Assembly: GCA_036677375.1 (NCBI GenBank)
Contig: JAVBWO010000012.1
Location: 173,374 to 237,373 of the forward strand
Source of the DNA: Bacillota bacterium
GTDB lineage: Bacteria > Bacillota > Dehalobacteriia > UBA4068 > UBA4997
Direction: 5' to 3'
DNA: 64,000 nucleotides
Below are positions 1,604 through 53,030 of the stretch, piece by piece. Every line of letters begins with the position of its first letter. Position 1 is the stretch's first letter. The notes under the pieces are model-generated. The model ran no database searches and was not told the origin of the DNA. It saw only the letters and a list, made by a program, of their open reading frames with translations. Both the position numbers and the translations under genes were made by a program.

Positions 1604-2104
1604 CGGCAATTGTTCCCGAAACTTTTGATAAATTTCGGGATATTCCTCAAAGAATTCAATGAGCTCGCCAAGGCTTTCCACTGTTTTTCTGCTCAGGATA
1701 TGCTCCGCCAGCTCCGCCTCTACAAAAGAATCGGCGCCGCCCGGCCCGTTCACCATGATAAAAAAATGATGTAATGTATCATGACGCCACAACAAGTATT
1801 TGCCAATGGCCTCTCCTTGTTCCGTTAAACGGATGGAACCATACTTTTCATAATCGAGAAAATGCAGATCCGCCAAGCGCCGGATCATCTTAGAGACGGA
1901 GGAGGGGCGGACATGCAGTTCCTTAGCCAGATCTTTCACCCGGACACGGCCGTTTGTGATAATATTACGGCAGATCATCTCCAAGTAGTCTTCCAAAGAA
2001 GCGGTGAGATTGTTTTGATGCTGATCCAGAAGCTGGTAACCCCGAACGGTATAAAAAACTTTTTTTTCCATTTTTTCCACTTTTTCTTTTTCTGTTTTTT
2101 CCAT
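1595..2104 (-). CDS. DtxR/MntR-family metal-dependent transcriptional repressor
   Basis: 169 aa with winged-HTH and metal-binding/dimerisation domain pattern typical of DtxR/IdeR/MntR. Divergent from feoAB. Confidence 0.8.
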   Translation of the reverse strand: MEKTEKEKVEKMEKKVFYTVRGYQLLDQHQNNLTASLEDYLEMICRNIITNGRVRVKDLAKELHVRPSSVSKMIRRLADLHFLDYEKYGSIRLTEQGEAIGKYLLWRHDTLHHFFIMVNGPGGADSFVEAELAEHILSRKTVESLGELIEFFEEYPEIYQKFREQLPEK

Positions 2105-2269
2105 GCGCCGTCTCCCCTCTGCCGCTGCGCCCGTTTTTCAGTTGGCTTACGGTATCGCTTTTGATGCTTTTGTCATGTTACCACGCTTTAAAACTATCTT
2201 ATACCCGTAACCAACCGATTATGCACCGCATATATTAGCTACGGGAAACATTATCGGGAGGAAACGTCA

Positions 2270-46607: not shown

Positions 46608-47870
46608 TCAGACCTCCCTCGCCGCTTTTTCATATAGTCCCAAAAGACGGCAGGGGCTGGCATAATCGCCCAGTTCCTTCAGCATCAGAAGAGCTCCCTC
46701 CCATGTGAAATCGCCTTCAATATCGGCAAAAAAACGGTATTCAAAATTATGACCCGGAATCGGACGGGATTCGATCCTAGTCAGGTTCCAGCCCTTTTCG
46801 GCAAAGAGCCCTAAAGCTTGGTATAAAGAACCAGAGCGGTGCGGCAACGTAAAACTAAAGGTCACTTTATTCCCCACAGCCTCTTGCGGCTCTTCCGCGA
46901 TGATAAAAAAGCGAGTGCTGTTTTGGGCGGCAGCCTGGATATTTGCCGAAAGAACCGCCAGGCCGTAGGTATCTGCGGCGTATTGGCTGGCAATGGCGGC
47001 TTTCTCTTTGTCGCCGGTATTTTTCACATACTGGGCAGAGAGAGCCGTATTATGATAAGGCCGCTTTTCCCAGCCGGTATTTTTCTGTAAAAAAGGCATA
47101 CATTGCTCAAAGCCCTGTTCGTGGGAATAGACTTGCCGAATATCCGATAAGCGCGTTCCTGGCAAACCCAAAAGGCAATGCCGAACCGGCAGGATCATTT
47201 CCCCTGTAATAGAGGCTGGAAATTCCATCATCAAATCATAGACCTGAGCAATGGAACCGGTGGTGGAATTCTCTACCGGAACCACGCCATACTTGGCTTC
47301 GCCCCGAGCCACCGCTTGAAAGACACCGGCAAAATCGGGATAAGCCAAAGCAACCCCCCGGTTACCAAACCATTTTTCCAAGGCCTCGTGACTGTAAGCG
47401 CCGGGTACTCCCGCATAGGCGACTTTTACTTGGGCAGTCTCGGGAACTTTTTCTGTGGTTATCCCCGGCTTAAAGGAAGTACTTTCCGGCTCTTTGCCAT
47501 CTTGCGTCCTCTTTTTAAGGGCTTTTTCAATGGGGTTTTGGGAGGTTTGCTCCTGCTTAGGGCCGTTCTCTGTCTTATCCGTGGTCTCTGATACCGTTTT
47601 TTGAGAAAGGGATGACATCTGCTCTTTCTTGCTCAGATCCATTATGGTATGGAAAAAGACTTGCAGCTTATCTGCCAGGGTTTCATCAGACAGCCAAGCC
47701 AGGCGGCTTTGGCAGACGGCCTCCTCCCGGGAGGCGTCATAAATGGGCAGCCCGGCTTTTTCTTTCTCCCAGGCAATTTCCCGGGCCAATGCCATCCGTT
47801 CCTGGAACAGCTTGACCAGCTCACTGTCGATAGCGTCGATCTCTTTTCTTAACTGTTCCAATTCTTTCAT
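46608..47870 (-). CDS. pheA: Bifunctional chorismate mutase / prephenate dehydratase with unusually long low-complexity inter-domain linker
   Basis: N-terminal AroQ-class CM motifs (LREIDAIDSELVKLF...), PDT domain, C-terminal ACT domain. ~70 aa S/T/E/K-rich linker. Confidence 0.9.
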   Translation of the reverse strand: MKELEQLRKEIDAIDSELVKLFQERMALAREIAWEKEKAGLPIYDASREEAVCQSRLAWLSDETLADKLQVFFHTIMDLSKKEQMSSLSQKTVSETTDKTENGPKQEQTSQNPIEKALKKRTQDGKEPESTSFKPGITTEKVPETAQVKVAYAGVPGAYSHEALEKWFGNRGVALAYPDFAGVFQAVARGEAKYGVVPVENSTTGSIAQVYDLMMEFPASITGEMILPVRHCLLGLPGTRLSDIRQVYSHEQGFEQCMPFLQKNTGWEKRPYHNTALSAQYVKNTGDKEKAAIASQYAADTYGLAVLSANIQAAAQNSTRFFIIAEEPQEAVGNKVTFSFTLPHRSGSLYQALGLFAEKGWNLTRIESRPIPGHNFEYRFFADIEGDFTWEGALLMLKELGDYASPCRLLGLYEKAAREV

Positions 47871-48952
47871 GCTTTCGCCCCTTCCATGCCAATATCCATC
47901 AGGGCCAGCGCTACCGCCGCTTCCACCACCGGCACCGCCCGCAACACGATGCAGGGATCATGCCGGCCGCTGATGGAGAGCATTTTTTCCGTATGAGCCG
48001 CCATATCCACAGTCTTCTGACTTTGTCCGATGGATGGCGTGGGCTTCACCGCCGCCCGAAGGATCAAGGGCATGCCGTTGGTGATTCCGCCGTTAACACC
48101 GCCGTTATGGTTGGTAGCAGTAACGATTTTGTCTTCCTGTAAAATAAAGGGATCGTTGGCCTCGCTGCCCCGCATTTCCGCCATGGCAAAACCGGCGCCA
48201 AATTCCACGCCTTTGACGGCGGGAATGGCAAATAAAAGGGAGGCAATGACATTTTCCACACCGGCAAACATGGGGCTGCCCCAACCGGCTGGTAAACCGT
48301 AAGCGGCACATTCGATGATACCGCCCACGGAATCTTCGTTTTCTCCGGCTTCCAGAATGGCTGCCTTCATATATTCCGCCGCGCCGTCATCCAAAACGGG
48401 GATTTCTTTTTTCTTTAAGCCTGCCAAGGCCGCCGTATCAAGGTTGCAGGGGTCAAAAGAGCTGTCCGCCACATGGCCGATCATGGCCGCGTGGGCTCCC
48501 ACAACAATGTTCCGTCGGTTCAGCCACTGCGCGGCCAAAACACCGGCAAAAACCAAAGGAGCCGTCAGTCTGCCTGAGAAATGACCGCCGCCCGAAGGGT
48601 CATGAAAACCCTGGTAGCGCACCATGCCCGTATAATCGGCATGGCCGGGACGTAAAAGCGAGCCGTTGCCGTAATCCTGCCGCCGGACATTGGTATTGGC
48701 AATCATGGCGCAAAGGGGCGTGCCTGTGGTTTTCCCCTGGTAAACGCCGGAAAGGATATTAACTTCATCTTTTTCCATCCGGGGCGTGGAATATAAATTT
48801 TGGCCAGGGGCCCGCCTTGCCATGGCCAGGGCAATCTCATCCTCTTGCACCGGCAAGCCAGGAGGTAAACCGTCTATGGCCACCCCGACGGCGGGACCGT
48901 GAGATTCGCCGAAGACCGTTATTTTCAAGTTACTACCAAGAAAGATGCTCAT
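47867..48952 (-). CDS. aroC: Chorismate synthase
   Basis: 361 aa, ...TVFGESHGPAVG... signature. Confidence 0.95.
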   Translation of the reverse strand: MSIFLGSNLKITVFGESHGPAVGVAIDGLPPGLPVQEDEIALAMARRAPGQNLYSTPRMEKDEVNILSGVYQGKTTGTPLCAMIANTNVRRQDYGNGSLLRPGHADYTGMVRYQGFHDPSGGGHFSGRLTAPLVFAGVLAAQWLNRRNIVVGAHAAMIGHVADSSFDPCNLDTAALAGLKKKEIPVLDDGAAEYMKAAILEAGENEDSVGGIIECAAYGLPAGWGSPMFAGVENVIASLLFAIPAVKGVEFGAGFAMAEMRGSEANDPFILQEDKIVTATNHNGGVNGGITNGMPLILRAAVKPTPSIGQSQKTVDMAAHTEKMLSISGRHDPCIVLRAVPVVEAAVALALMDIGMEGAKA

Positions 48953-50198
48953 GTATGACGCCTCCTAACGACTCATATTCCCTCCAAAAATCGGGAGCCG
49001 ATTTTTCTACCGTTTCATAACCTTCCAAAAGCACGGGCTCCCGACAGATGGTGGCAGCAATGGCCAGAGACATGGCAATACGGTGATCGCCCCAGGCCGA
49101 AACCCTACCGCCTCTCAGGCTGCCGCTGCCATAGATCAAAAGCCCGTCCGATGTTTCCGCAACGCTGCCGCCTAAAGCAGTAATACCCGCCGCAATGGCC
49201 GCCAGGCGGTCGCTTTCCTTAAGACGCAGCCTTTCGGCATGGATAATTCTGGTTTCACCCGTTACGCCGCAGGCCGCTACTGCCAAAGCAGGCACCAAAT
49301 CAGGCACCTGCGCGGCGTCAATGATACTGGCCTGAGGTGTACCGGGCAATGCCTTTACTTCCAAAGCGGTGTCCCAGATCCGTGCTCCCATTTGTGTCAA
49401 TAGAGCCGTGACGGCTCTGTCCCCTTGCAGACTATTGCCGTAAAGGCCGCGGCAGGAAACCGGATTGCCCAGAAAGCCTGCCGTCAGGTAAAACGCGGCA
49501 TGAGACCAGTCCGCTTCCACATGGTAAGCAAAAGGAGTATATTTCCCGGGTTTTATTGTAAAATGATTCCCTTCTCTTAAGATCACAATACCGAAAAGCG
49601 CCTGCACATCTTGGGTAAGCGCCACATAATCGGCGGATTGCAGCTCGCCTTCGATCGCAATTTGGGAACTTTCTTTTAATAAGGGCAACGCCAGAAGCAG
49701 CCCCGAGACATACTGGCTGGAAACATTGCCCGGCAGAACATAGGCGCCGCTTTGCAGCCGACCCTTGGCCAAGATGCCCTCCGGCTTTTCCTCAATCGTG
49801 GCGCCGCCCCGGCGAAGCGCCTCAAGATAAGGCGCCATGGGACGCTGGAACAGCCGGCCGCCGCCAGTGAAAAGGGTTTCGACGCCGCAGGCCAAGGCTA
49901 CGGGCAAAAGAAAACGTAAGGTGGAACCGGATTCTTTGCAATCCACCATTGCCTTTTCCTTCTCCCGCAAGCCACCGGATACCGCCAGAACAGGGGGTTC
50001 CCCTAATATACGGGCCAAACCAAGGGCTTCCAGACCCCGTCCTGTCGCGATAAGATCCTGGGAAGCGCCCACATTTTTCAAAATGGAAGTACCTTCCGCC
50101 AAGGCAGCGCAAATAAGCCCCCGATGGGAAAGAGATTTTGAGGGTTGAATCCAGACATCGCCCCGAAGCTTGCCGGGTGTAATCTCCAAAAGCTTCAT
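48933..50198 (-). CDS. aroA: 3-phosphoshikimate 1-carboxyvinyltransferase (EPSP synthase)
   Basis: 421 aa EPSP synthase pattern. Overlaps aroC start. Confidence 0.95.
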   Translation of the reverse strand: MKLLEITPGKLRGDVWIQPSKSLSHRGLICAALAEGTSILKNVGASQDLIATGRGLEALGLARILGEPPVLAVSGGLREKEKAMVDCKESGSTLRFLLPVALACGVETLFTGGGRLFQRPMAPYLEALRRGGATIEEKPEGILAKGRLQSGAYVLPGNVSSQYVSGLLLALPLLKESSQIAIEGELQSADYVALTQDVQALFGIVILREGNHFTIKPGKYTPFAYHVEADWSHAAFYLTAGFLGNPVSCRGLYGNSLQGDRAVTALLTQMGARIWDTALEVKALPGTPQASIIDAAQVPDLVPALAVAACGVTGETRIIHAERLRLKESDRLAAIAAGITALGGSVAETSDGLLIYGSGSLRGGRVSAWGDHRIAMSLAIAATICREPVLLEGYETVEKSAPDFWREYESLGGVIHEHLSW

Positions 50199-51241
50199 AC
50201 GCCTACCCCCTCCAGCAATTGTTCAAGAACCAAAGCCGGCACCTGCTCCACCACAGCTTCACCAATGCCTTTTAAAAGCACCAGACGTCCGGCGCCCTTT
50301 TTATCCAATTGTAAAGCATCCGCCACTAATTTGCGATCCACAGGGGGAGCTTGCACCGGCAAATCATAACGGATGAGTACTTCTTCGATCTCTTTTGCTG
50401 TCCCTACCGGCGCCAGTCCCAATTTTTCACTGAGCCGGGCAGCGGCCGCCATGCCGATGGCAACGCCCTCGCCGTGGAGGATTCCGTTATAACCAAGGGC
50501 GCTTTCCACGGCATGCCCCAAAGTATGGCCAAAATTCAACTGGGCCCGAATCCCCCGGTCAAAGGGATCGGCGGCGGCATATTCCTGCTTAATGGCAATA
50601 CAGCGGGTCACCAGCGCGGTAAGATCCTGCCGCTCTTTTCCTTTGGCGATTTGATAAAAAAGCGCTTGATCTCTGATGCAACCGTATTTGATGACCTCCG
50701 CCATGCCTGCCGACCACTGGCGGGGTTCTAAAGTAGCCAAAGCGGCAATGTCGGCCACTACCATCTTGGGATTGTAAAAGGTGCCAGCCATATTCTTACC
50801 CTGGGGCAGGTCAATGGCTACCTTGCCGCCCACAGAGCTGTCTACCTGAGCCAGCAAGGTAGTGGGAAGCTGCACAAAATTGACGCCCCGCATATAGGTG
50901 GCGGCGGCAAAACCGGCTAAATCCCCTACTACGCCGCCGCCCAATGCCAGCACCACATCCTGGCGGGAAAGAGGAGCCTCCGCCATCTTGCCGTATAAAT
51001 AAAACAGCATTTCCGGGGATTTGCTGCCTTCTCCTTCCGGTACTGTTACTAAAGTAGACGTCATGCCGGCTTCCCTAAGAACATCAAGTAATTGTATGCC
51101 GTAAAGGGGCGCTACTTTTGCATCACTGACCACAAAGGCCTTTCTCCCGGTAAAGGCAGCCAAGTATTCCCCGGTTTTTTTCAGAAGGCCTTCGCCGATA
51201 TGAATATCATAACCATTGCCATGGACTGTTTTCAAAACCAT
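50195..51241 (-). CDS. aroB: 3-dehydroquinate synthase
   Basis: 348 aa, GGGVVGDLAGFAAATYMRG motif. Confidence 0.95.
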   Translation of the reverse strand: MVLKTVHGNGYDIHIGEGLLKKTGEYLAAFTGRKAFVVSDAKVAPLYGIQLLDVLREAGMTSTLVTVPEGEGSKSPEMLFYLYGKMAEAPLSRQDVVLALGGGVVGDLAGFAAATYMRGVNFVQLPTTLLAQVDSSVGGKVAIDLPQGKNMAGTFYNPKMVVADIAALATLEPRQWSAGMAEVIKYGCIRDQALFYQIAKGKERQDLTALVTRCIAIKQEYAAADPFDRGIRAQLNFGHTLGHAVESALGYNGILHGEGVAIGMAAAARLSEKLGLAPVGTAKEIEEVLIRYDLPVQAPPVDRKLVADALQLDKKGAGRLVLLKGIGEAVVEQVPALVLEQLLEGVGV

Positions 51242-51475
51242 CTGCTCCTTCTTTATACTGTCTTTATATTGTGCTTTTTACGCTGTTTCGTTTTTACCTG
51301 TTCATGATAGAAGAGGATAAATACAATAAAGCCATTAGAAACGTTAGCAAATTCAGCAAATTTACTTGCGGGTAAGACATGCCTTGCTGCTTATTCCGTA
51401 TTTTTGGTATGCCAGTTTCGCTTTTGCTTCATTTAAATGCTAATGATACCTCAACATAAATAGTATCCTGCTATC

Positions 51476-51555
51476 ATCCTGTTTTATCTGTTTTTTATTC
51501 GGCTTTTTCCTGTTTTATCCTGCTTTATCCTTTTTTGTCCTGCTTTGTCCAGTCA
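51476..51555. repeat. ~6 degenerate tandem copies of a 12 bp unit (minus strand GATAAA[A/G]CAGGA) between aroB and aroF
   Basis: cctgttttatc / cctgctttatc / cctgctttgtcc repeats visible directly. Confidence 0.7.
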
Positions 51556-51647
51556 AAACACGGGAAGATGGCAATGGGGCCTTCATAGAACATGCCACCG
51601 AAAGTATTTTCCTGATGCAACTTGCGGGTTTTCCTGCGCACTACTTA

Positions 51648-52661
51648 CTACATGCTGCGACCCAAGAGTTCCGCCACTTTGCCGCATTTCTCCATCAAAA
51701 CAGCGAAATCCTGTGGCAAGATGGACTGGGGTCCGTCGGAAAGGGCGTTTTTAGGATCGTTATGCACTTCGATAAGCAACCCATCGGCACCCGCGGCCAC
51801 TGCCGCCAGAGACAGGGGCTCTACCATGTAGCGCCGTCCGGCGGCGTGGGAAGGGTCCACCAAAACGGGCAAGTGGGAAAGCTCTTTCAAAGCCGGAATG
51901 GCGCTGATATCCAAAGTATTCCTGGTATAATTCTCGAAGGTGCGGATGCCCCGTTCGCATAGGATCACATTGGGGTTACCCCGGCTCATGATATACTCCG
52001 CCGACATGAGAAGCTCCTCAATGGTGCTGGAAAGGCCCCGTTTTAACAATACCGGCTTTTTGGTGCTGCCAACTTCCTTCAGAAGCTCGAAATTTTGCAT
52101 ATTGCGGGCGCCAATTTGGATGACATCCACCACCATCTCAAACATTTCCACATGCCGGGGAGTGGTCAGCTCCGTCACGATGGGCAGCCCGGTTTCCAAC
52201 CGTATCTGCTGTAGGATCTCGATGCCTTCTTTTTCCATGCCCTGGAAGGAATAGGGCGAGGTGCGCGGCTTGTAAGCGCCGCCCCGGATGGCGGAAGCCC
52301 CCGCCGCTTTGACTTGGGCCGCGATACCGCGCATTTGATCCAGGCTTTCCACCGAGCAGGGTCCGGCGATGGCAATGATTTGATTACCGCCGATTAGCAC
52401 ATCTCCCACCTGGACAACGCTGTTTTCCGGATGAAATTTCCGGTTGGCCTTTTTATAAGGCTCCTGTACGGGGATGATGCGCTCCACCCCTTCCATCAAC
52501 AAAACCTGTTCTTTGTCTACCTGGGTCGTATCTCCCAAAACTCCTAGGACCACACAATCCACGCCCTGATTCACCTGTACCTGCATTTGGCTTTTTTCCA
52601 GAGTGGCAATCACTTCTTCCGTCTGGCCGGAAGTTGCTTTCGGACTCATGATGACGATCAT
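51648..52661 (-). CDS. aroF: 3-deoxy-7-phosphoheptulonate (DAHP) synthase, type I-beta, with N-terminal regulatory domain
   Basis: Start re-picked at MIVIMSPKA (AAAGGAGG RBS). KDO8P/DAHP synthase I-beta pattern. Confidence 0.9.
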   Translation of the reverse strand: MIVIMSPKATSGQTEEVIATLEKSQMQVQVNQGVDCVVLGVLGDTTQVDKEQVLLMEGVERIIPVQEPYKKANRKFHPENSVVQVGDVLIGGNQIIAIAGPCSVESLDQMRGIAAQVKAAGASAIRGGAYKPRTSPYSFQGMEKEGIEILQQIRLETGLPIVTELTTPRHVEMFEMVVDVIQIGARNMQNFELLKEVGSTKKPVLLKRGLSSTIEELLMSAEYIMSRGNPNVILCERGIRTFENYTRNTLDISAIPALKELSHLPVLVDPSHAAGRRYMVEPLSLAAVAAGADGLLIEVHNDPKNALSDGPQSILPQDFAVLMEKCGKVAELLGRSM

Positions 52662-52724
52662 TTTATTACCTCCTTTAATTTTGATCATAATAATCAAGGC
52701 TTTAAGCTTTCATAAAATAAAAAA

Positions 52725-52751
52725 CACGGGAGCCATTATCAGGCTCCCGTG
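52725..52751 (-). terminator. Intrinsic terminator (CACGGGAGCC-loop-GGCUCCCGUG + U7) in the aroF leader, ~65 nt upstream of the start codon: attenuator
   Basis: Minus-strand transcript ...CACGGGAGCCUGAUAAUGGCUCCCGUGUUUUUUAUUUU.... Confidence 0.8.
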
Positions 52752-52791
52752 CTATAAACAAGCAGGATAAGAGTAGCCGCAAATGGTTTTT

Positions 52792-52872
52792 CTAGCCCAC
52801 GTCAAAATAGCCGTAGTTTAAAAAACTAAAGCTAAACAGGCCAAAAAATCGATTTGCAGCGCGATGAGACAT
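52792..52872 (-). CDS. 26-aa Phe/Tyr-rich leader peptide MSHRAANRFFGLFSFSFLNYGYFDVG (attenuation leader of aromatic operon)
   Basis: GGAGG RBS 8 nt upstream of ATG. 6 Phe + 2 Tyr in 26 codons. Stop lies ~40 nt before the terminator stem. Confidence 0.6.
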   Translation of the reverse strand: MSHRAANRFFGLFSFSFLNYGYFDVG

Positions 52873-52907
52873 TTTCAGACCTCCGTTTGAGGTACTTATT
52901 TGCAGTT

Positions 52908-52936
52908 ATTATAACATCAGGCAAAGTAAAGTGCAA
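52908..52936 (-). promoter_or_regulatory. Sigma-A type promoter for the aroF leader: -35 TTGCAC, 17 bp spacer, -10 TATAAT
   Basis: Read on minus strand: ttgcactttactttgcctgatgttataat. Confidence 0.6.
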
Positions 52937-53030
52937 GAAAATTTTTTCAAGCAAAAGAATATTAAACGAGGTCAATTATTACCGAACCGTAAAGTGGGAG
53001 ACCCGGCAAAGGCCGACAACATCTGCCCTA

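Follow-up and report, generated by a model that had tools for sequence, protein, structure and literature searches.

An aromatic-codon-rich leader peptide and alternative RNA helices upstream of aroF suggest ribosome-mediated attenuation in a Dehalobacteriia bacterium and its relatives

The minus strand of a 64,000-nucleotide (nt) stretch of DNA from a Bacillota bacterium of the Dehalobacteriia (contig JAVBWO010000012.1, positions 173,374 to 237,373; hereafter the window, meaning this whole stretch) carries a short leader ahead of aroF, the gene for 3-deoxy-D-arabino-heptulosonate 7-phosphate (DAHP) synthase. Judged from its sequence, this leader is very probably a ribosome-mediated transcription attenuator, through which the charging of phenylalanine (Phe) and tyrosine (Tyr) transfer RNAs (tRNAs) would govern aroF. 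It combines a promoter, a Shine-Dalgarno (SD) sequence, a small open reading frame (ORF) rich in aromatic codons and an intrinsic terminator (Table 1), and the RNA between the promoter and aroF can form alternative helices of the kind used by classical attenuators. The predicted sensor is a general aromatic one, with Phe and Tyr codons in the window and also tryptophan (Trp) codons in its relatives, and is not Phe-specific like that of pheL.

Table 1. Features of the aroF leader and its surroundings (window coordinates unless a locus is named)
Feature	Position	Strand	Basis and remarks
-35 element TTGCAC	52931..52936	-	read in sequence; 3/6 match to TTGACA
Extended -10 TGTTATAAT (TG + TATAAT)	52908..52916	-	read in sequence
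Leader SD GGAGG, 7 nt 5' of ATG	52880..52884	-	read in sequence
Leader ORF MSHRAANRFFGLFSFSFLNYGYFDVG, 26 codons + UAG	52792..52872	-	read in sequence
Region 1, 5' strand of P1 (anti-antiterminator) GCUGCAAAUCG, codons 5-8	52850..52860	-	minimum free energy (MFE) fold
P2 hairpin within aromatic codons (UUAGCUUUAGUU / AAACUACGGCUA)	52808..52835	-	RNAalifold consensus
Region 2 CCAUUUGCGGCUACUCU, 3' strand of P1 or 5' strand of antiterminator	52770..52786	-	duplex prediction
Intrinsic terminator hairpin	52723..52753	-	terminator scan; 12 pairs, 8 G-C, 7-nt loop
Region 3, terminator 5' arm AGCACGGGAGCC	52753-52742	-	terminator scan + fold
Terminator loop UGAUAAU	52741-52735	-	terminator scan + fold
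Region 4, terminator 3' arm GGCUCCCGUGUU	52734-52723	-	terminator scan + fold
U-tract U6 A U4 A U, 3' of terminator stem	52712..52724	-	read in sequence
aroF: SD GGAGG 52673-52669, ATG 52661, stop 51648	51648..52673	-	NCBIfam NF006421, 497 bits, full length
aroB, aroA, aroC, 3' of aroF	47867..51241	-	NCBIfam equivalogs
T-boxes directly 5' of aroF in orthologous loci	L025:2706-2941, L028:2667-2931, L060:2631-2896, L068:1617-1875, L088:1151-1412		RF00230

A preliminary description of the window, made from its letters, had proposed a Phe-rich leader peptide attenuator at this site, and most of the parts it listed can be read where it placed them. Both the GGAGG ribosome-binding site and the 26-codon ORF with its six Phe and two Tyr codons lie between leuB and aroF on the minus strand; the aromatic codons, 8 of 26, occupy positions 9, 10, 13, 15, 17 and 23 (Phe) and 20 and 22 (Tyr). 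The promoter that it called near-consensus for sigma-A (TTGCAC-17-TATAAT) is present, with a perfect -10 hexamer at 52913-52908 (-), an extended TG and a 17-nt spacer from the -35 element, but near-consensus is too generous for a -35 that agrees with TTGACA at only three of six positions, and for that reason a consensus promoter scan missed it. All ten close relatives nonetheless carry a TTGCA(C/T) -35 with the 17-nt spacer, within a promoter of the TTGCA-17-TGnTATAAT type (TATATT in L167). The intrinsic terminator is there as well, its 12 pairs found by scan; its U-run reads U6-A-U4 and not U7, and the distance from the end of the U6 run to the aroF ATG is 57 nt, not the approximately 65 nt that had been stated.

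As a whole, the leader folds more stably than its shuffled counterparts (z = -5.2). Three helices define its predicted architecture. P1 joins region 1, which sits just 5' of the first Phe-Phe pair, to a segment that begins 5 nt past the leader stop codon UAG (region 2, CCAUUUGCGGC in P1); P2 is a hairpin formed within the aromatic codons themselves and possibly serves as a pause or structural element; the third is the terminator hairpin. Support for each was assessed with RNAalifold and explicit pair counts on an alignment of 11 sequences (the window and its 10 relatives), in which P2, the terminator and the base of P1 all lie well above slid-register controls. In this alignment the P1 base, which pairs codons 5-8 with the post-stop segment, is 73% paired with 3 compensatory pairs, P2 is 96% paired with 4, and the terminator is 90% paired with 6. 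When 71 distinct family sequences are considered, P1 is 63% paired as compared to 27-47% for slid controls, P2 is 83% paired with 5 compensatory pairs (its slid-register controls reach 24-56%), and the terminator is 91% paired. Two further pairings were set aside. The middle extension of P1 is specific to the window and 59% paired, and was excluded from the model; a helix between the 5' end and the pre-terminator segment in the window's MFE structure (GCAAAUAAG:CUUGUUUAU) depends on the start site, and by eye its partner is not kept in the relatives.

Region 2 has a second predicted partner. Starting from CCAUU, it pairs with the distal part of the terminator 5' arm, the loop and the first G's of the 3' arm, and this antiterminator was evaluated by per-sequence duplexes rather than alignment columns. 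The region 2:region 3 duplex is the best duplex in 11/11 close sequences, with energies of -12 to -17 kcal/mol and a mean z of -2.4, and its two strands vary in matched fashion (CCAUU:AAUGG, CCAUC:GAUGG, CCGUU...AACGG and GACCA:UGGUC). Over 106 leaders of the wider family the duplex has a median energy of -12.6 kcal/mol, as compared to -8.2 kcal/mol for an equal-length 5' untranslated region (5'UTR) control (Wilcoxon 1e-12), and it also exceeds shuffles in energy. Region 2 is thus common to P1 and the antiterminator, and the terminator 5' arm is common to the antiterminator and the terminator; as modeled, this is the mutually exclusive 1:2 / 2:3 / 3:4 arrangement of classical attenuators. In the window the three states have energies of -33.5 (P1/P2), -16.0 (antiterminator) and -23.3 kcal/mol (terminator). 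The start of region 2 also keeps its place relative to the stop codon, lying 2-6 nt after it in the relatives (the ORF runs through in L167 and L168), and over the 106 leaders of the family the median start of the region-2 strand is 7 nt before the stop codon. The alternative antiterminator that the preliminary description had proposed to seek by RNA folding is therefore found, together with an anti-antiterminator.

A further segment resembles region 1. Directly 3' of the -10 box, CTGCAAAT at 52898-52905 (-) duplicates it (GCTGCAAATCG, 52860-52850) and shares its complementarity to region 2. L161, L165 and L169 retain this segment, L164 and L166 have CTGCAAT(T) in its place, and L162, L163, L167, L168 and L170 lack it. 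Depending on where transcription truly starts, the segment could offer region 2 a second partner that is independent of translation, or could be untranscribed promoter-proximal DNA.

From these elements, their conservation and their complementarities we infer where transcription starts, that the small ORF is translated, that ribosomes stall on it and that the outcome responds to amino acid supply. Judged by promoter spacing, transcription would begin at about 52901 and yield a leader RNA encoding a 26-residue peptide with eight aromatic codons, and its fate would be decided by the three exclusive helices 1:2 (P1), 2:3 (antiterminator) and 3:4 (terminator). With an ample supply of Phe and Tyr, a ribosome would reach the UAG and cover region 2, because region 2 begins only 5 nt further on; with the antiterminator blocked, the terminator would form and transcription would halt before aroF. 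A shortage of charged Phe-tRNA or Tyr-tRNA would instead stall the ribosome at codons 9-23, where it would mask or hold off region 1 and free region 2, which would capture the emerging terminator 5' arm (-16 kcal/mol), so that RNA polymerase would read into aroF and probably continue into aroB, aroA and aroC. When the leader is not translated at all, P1/P2 would sequester region 2 and the terminator would again form.

The arrangement is retained well beyond the window. Ten close relatives with aroF identities of 69-95% were collected from the protein database and by exact-contig look-ups, and 10/10 keep the promoter, the SD (GGAGG, GGGGG or GGGG), a Phe/Tyr/Trp-rich ORF of 26-39 codons and the terminator. 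The gene on the 5' side of the leader is leuB in only 3/10 of them and otherwise feoB, aroQ or an elongation factor G (EF-G) paralog; because the promoter-ORF-terminator unit persists when its upstream neighbor changes, it belongs to aroF and is not a leu terminator. The N-terminus of the leader peptide varies freely and its aromatic positions interchange F, Y and W, such that FSFSFLNYGYF in the window corresponds to FNYSYFNYSYL in L165 and to FSFWGYGFL in L168.

More distant orthologs were gathered by scanning genome and metagenome collections with the aroF protein; at least 160 loci sharing 55-69% identity were returned. Of 160 aroF upstream regions among the matches listed, 69% contain an SD-preceded ORF that is 12-65 codons long and has no fewer than 6 aromatic residues within 15 codons; the reverse strand scores 1% in this comparison and dinucleotide shuffles score 1.9%. 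The conservation of the small ORF which the preliminary description had suggested looking for is thus borne out, and with it the aromatic enrichment whose absence from orthologous leaders that description had named as counting against its proposal. On average, the ORF frame contains 10.3 aromatic codons and 0 stops; one alternative frame has 4.2 aromatic codons and 2.0 stops, the other 6.2 and 3.3. Across the family, TTT is used 553 times versus 88 for TTC and TAT 296 times versus 124 for TAC, and the peptides range from 20 to 57 residues with variable termini and exact residues. A terminator lies between the ORF and aroF in 106/110 ORF-bearing leaders. Iterative nhmmer searches started from the close group reached 86 loci, all with an aromatic ORF, whereas the reverse-strand control stayed at 3. 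A hidden Markov model (HMM) of 75 distant members, from which the window and its 10 relatives had been removed but whose alignment had been grown iteratively from the window's own group, gave a single match in the window, at 52874-52721 (-), with 50.6 bits and E = 4.8e-15 (128 kb searched). We incline to the view that aroF across Clostridia, Christensenellales, Oscillospiraceae and Negativicutes is predominantly controlled by a large, apparently homologous family of Phe/Tyr/Trp leader-peptide attenuators, that T-boxes and this family alternate at one position, and that the family is absent from Rfam, Pfam and NCBIfam.

Several observations weigh against ribosome-mediated attenuation, or temper the evidence for it. 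In the model, region 1 lies 5' of most aromatic codons, and stalls at codons 17-23 would not directly cover it; to accommodate them, the model has to invoke steric hindrance or a queue of ribosomes. The Bacillota have been assigned to the 'runaway transcription' species (PMC13323073; also PMC7858274), and where polymerase outruns the ribosome a ribosome-dependent attenuator would need a pause, for which the conserved P1/P2 hairpin is, speculatively, a candidate that would let the ribosome catch the polymerase. The antiterminator is also less firmly supported than the other helices. Folding the segment from the stop codon to the end of the terminator loop gave structures no better than shuffles (window z = -0.45), and only with the opening bases of the 3' arm added to the segment did the recurring pairing emerge. 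The window's own antiterminator duplex is modestly significant (z = -2.0, p = 0.04). Covariation in the alignment columns is weak, the helix being 68% paired across the 11 sequences and 56% across the 71, because indels misalign the loop columns. Finally, the sequences are related and hence not independent, which makes pooled p-values optimistic. Equilibrium folding with a masked ribosome footprint yielded the terminator in every case.

We consider it unlikely that the terminator and antiterminator are instead switched without a ribosome, by a diverged T-box, an RNA-binding protein or a small-molecule aptamer, with the aromatic ORF a by-product of U-rich structured RNA. Such a switch would fit the great stability of P1/P2 and the compensatory changes that preserve P2; these imply that RNA structure is selected, which partly accounts for the 'FS..GYF' motif of the peptide. 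Diverged T-boxes can moreover escape Rfam (PMC5314783), and T-boxes occupy the same position in some orthologs. However, no T-box or other family is matched in the leader even at E up to 10 with permissive filters, highly divergent sequences preserve a correctly spaced SD, a start codon and an open frame while their other frames have 2-3 stops, aromatic identity survives both F to Y/W and synonymous changes, and the position of the stop codon relative to region 2 is conserved. Still less probable is a translated ORF whose signal is not tRNA charging, for example a TnaC-like nascent-peptide arrest caused by a free amino acid, or a functional hydrophobic micro-protein. The family does share a loose motif, F.F.F..[YA]G[YF]F, but the motif coincides with both strands of P2 (UAGC...GGCUA) and RNA pairing therefore explains it, while the termini, length and exact residues of the peptides are free to vary and none of the peptides matches Pfam or NCBIfam. 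Amino-acid-induced arrest would, in addition, have the wrong sign, turning a biosynthetic operon on when its product is abundant.

It is very improbable that the hairpin is a plain terminator of the leu operon, with an aroF promoter downstream of it and a Phe-rich ORF that arose by chance, an outcome that the preliminary description had itself named as fatal to its proposal. The reading draws on the position of leuB, which ends 278 nt 5' of the hairpin and is followed by no other obvious terminator, and on a weak promoter-like match, ATGAAA-18-TATGAT (9/12), at 52684-52713 (-) between the hairpin and aroF. However, that match lies inside an insertion of about 25 nt unique to the window, promoter-like matches in the region number 2 as compared to 2.9 expected by chance, and the ORF is conserved far beyond controls. 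The leader, moreover, stays with aroF behind feoB, aroQ and the EF-G paralog, and this synteny already largely refutes the reading. The ATGAAA-18-TATGAT match is probably due to chance, and it could allow some unattenuated transcription of aroF.

Ribosome-mediated attenuation of this type has classical counterparts. Those of Proteobacteria are the pheL-pheA leader of E. coli (Rfam Phe_leader) and the leaders of trp, his and leu. They share with the window the 1:2 / 2:3 / 3:4 design and a peptide rich in regulatory codons; in them, as here, the stop codon lies where a ribosome finishing translation would mask region 2, and the antiterminator (here approximately -16 kcal/mol) is weaker than the terminator (approximately -23 kcal/mol) with which it competes. 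The comparison with pheL/pheA drawn in the preliminary description is supported in this respect, and its Phe-specific reading gives way to a general aromatic sensor. Other differences are clear: the window has no sequence or covariance-model similarity to pheL-pheA; its target is aroF of the common pathway and not pheA, and its regulatory codons are a mix of Phe and Tyr (with Trp in relatives); region 1 lies just 5' of the regulatory codons rather than containing them; and the conserved P2 hairpin is built from the aromatic codons themselves. Unexpectedness in a Firmicute, which the preliminary description had also asserted, is too strong a claim, because leader peptides for His in Bacilli (PMC2965389) and Leu in Streptococcus (PMC5314783) have already been reported in Firmicutes, as has an Acholeplasma aroF leader peptide (PMC8632094). 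The His and Leu leaders use the same classical mechanism for other amino acids and other operons, and their sequences are unrelated.

Closer in target, and the nearest functional analog, is aroR-aroF of Corynebacterium glutamicum, an experimentally studied attenuator that is also predicted in PMC4046766 and in which, as relayed in PMC11802643 from Neshat et al. 2014, the leader's peptide includes Phe-Tyr-Phe and, as ribosomes stall when Phe is limiting, read-through into the operon rises. As in the window, a short Phe/Tyr leader peptide lies directly 5' of a DAHP synthase gene, with the same target, signal and logic; unlike the window, which has 8 aromatic codons over 15, the actinobacterial leader has one Phe-Tyr-Phe triplet. 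The two leaders were compared by description, which carries no claim of homology, and are likely of independent origin. The nearest described relative may be the uORFC-13-1 motif of Brewer et al. 2021 (PMC8632094), comprising 24 sequences from Acholeplasma and environmental DNA that occur exclusively 5' of aroF; its predicted upstream ORF (uORF) comes with a promoter, a ribosome-binding site and a start codon, includes U-runs that encode Phe, and is accompanied by a further base-paired element and by an intrinsic terminator next to it. The window leader matches the motif as described in words, and the two may belong to one family. In our collection, the Acholeplasmataceae locus L036 carries an aromatic uORF (..YYFSAWYF..) and a terminator resembling those of Clostridium leaders (..FYFSAGYF..); nhmmer iterations from the close group did not reach L036, and Rfam models did not match it. 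Fuchs et al. listed the C. difficile aroF 5'UTR among those with premature termination and no known riboregulator (PMC8237595), and, judging from the Peptostreptococcaceae member L031, the aromatic leader family probably explains this termination.

Searches of curated libraries returned no family for the leader. With permissive filters and E up to 10, an Rfam search of the leader region found no T-box and no leader-peptide family, in agreement with the preliminary description, which had reported no T-box motif; the top matches, RAGATH-22 (25.8 versus 120 bits) and L20_leader (22.9 versus 58.7 bits), cover only the terminator hairpin. At gathering scores, 0 Rfam families (no riboswitch, T-box, tRNA-like or other curated RNA) were found on either strand of the 64-kb window. 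The T-box model RF00230 had no match in the window in either search mode, and no T-box sequence or specifier-loop architecture was seen there. Leader peptides searched against Pfam and NCBIfam matched no family. In contrast, five orthologs that lack an aromatic ORF carry a T-box next to aroF, scoring 94-108 bits with RF00230 (Table 1). These clostridial T-box leaders share with the window leader their position, a terminator/antiterminator output and uncharged aromatic tRNA as signal, and differ from it in binding the tRNA directly, with no need for translation. Taken from sequence comparison, T-box and leader peptide thus appear to be two sensors that replace each other at one locus, and the case is a clean one. 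One of the T-box loci, L028, has a second T-box farther upstream (639-870, 130 bits).

The leader stands between leuA, leuC, leuD and leuB on its upstream side and aroF, aroB, aroA and aroC on its downstream side. The DAHP synthase encoded by aroF carries a ferredoxin-like regulatory domain at its N-terminus (PF18152 + PF00793, precomputed for an identical protein). In the window, aroF and aroB are separated by a 406-nt spacer (51242-51647), as compared to 18-45 nt in relatives L162-L165; a terminator was sought in this spacer and none was found, and its folding does not depart from shuffles (z = 0.13, no special structure). Because the spacer lacks a terminator and is short in relatives, aroF is likely to be co-transcribed with aroB, aroA and aroC, which would place the whole operon under control of the leader. 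The spacer also holds a tandem repeat at 51464-51550, with a 10-nt period, 8.5 copies and the consensus TATCCTGCTT on the plus strand (AAGCAGGATA in gene direction). A spacer core of about 75 nt is near-identical in L161, the 95% relative, despite diverged flanks. In L161 (2530-2925) the aroF stop codon TAG is changed to TCG, and the called product has 399 residues, including about 44 extra C-terminal residues that run into the spacer and an 18-residue N-terminal over-extension that engulfs the terminator 3' arm.

Small ORFs of comparable composition are few in the 64-kb window: besides the leader ORF, two SD-preceded small ORFs with at least 8 aromatic residues per 15 codons were found, at 2015-2164 (+) and 22596-22429 (-). 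The Phe-rich ORF at 2015-2164 (+), FFFHFFHFFFFCFFH, was considered as a second attenuator and rejected, as it is antisense to a real gene. It is the antisense of the Lys/Glu-rich N-terminus of the minus-strand gene 1595-2104, which adjoins feoA and, by eye, looks like a metal-dependent repressor.

The mechanism proposed for the aroF leader is already known, and no new mechanism is revealed here. The under-documented aspect is the breadth of the aromatic leader family, which, from the sequences surveyed, seems to be the commonest arrangement 5' of this aroF clade in Clostridia, Christensenellales, Oscillospiraceae and Negativicutes. In the literature searched, the family is represented only by the 24-sequence Acholeplasma motif and the unexplained premature termination in C. 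difficile, and genome annotation misses it because Rfam, Pfam and NCBIfam contain no matching model. For this genome, the leader would provide a translational read-out of Phe-tRNA and Tyr-tRNA charging atop the allosteric N-terminal domain of the aroF enzyme, and the replacement of T-box by leader peptide at aroF would be a clean natural example of sensor exchange. The aroF leader may also serve as a test case for ribosome-dependent attenuation in Bacillota, whose RNA polymerase is believed to run ahead of the ribosome; if the proposal is true, ribosome-coupled attenuation would be widespread in a phylum classed as 'runaway' (uncoupled), implying a built-in pause, perhaps P1/P2.

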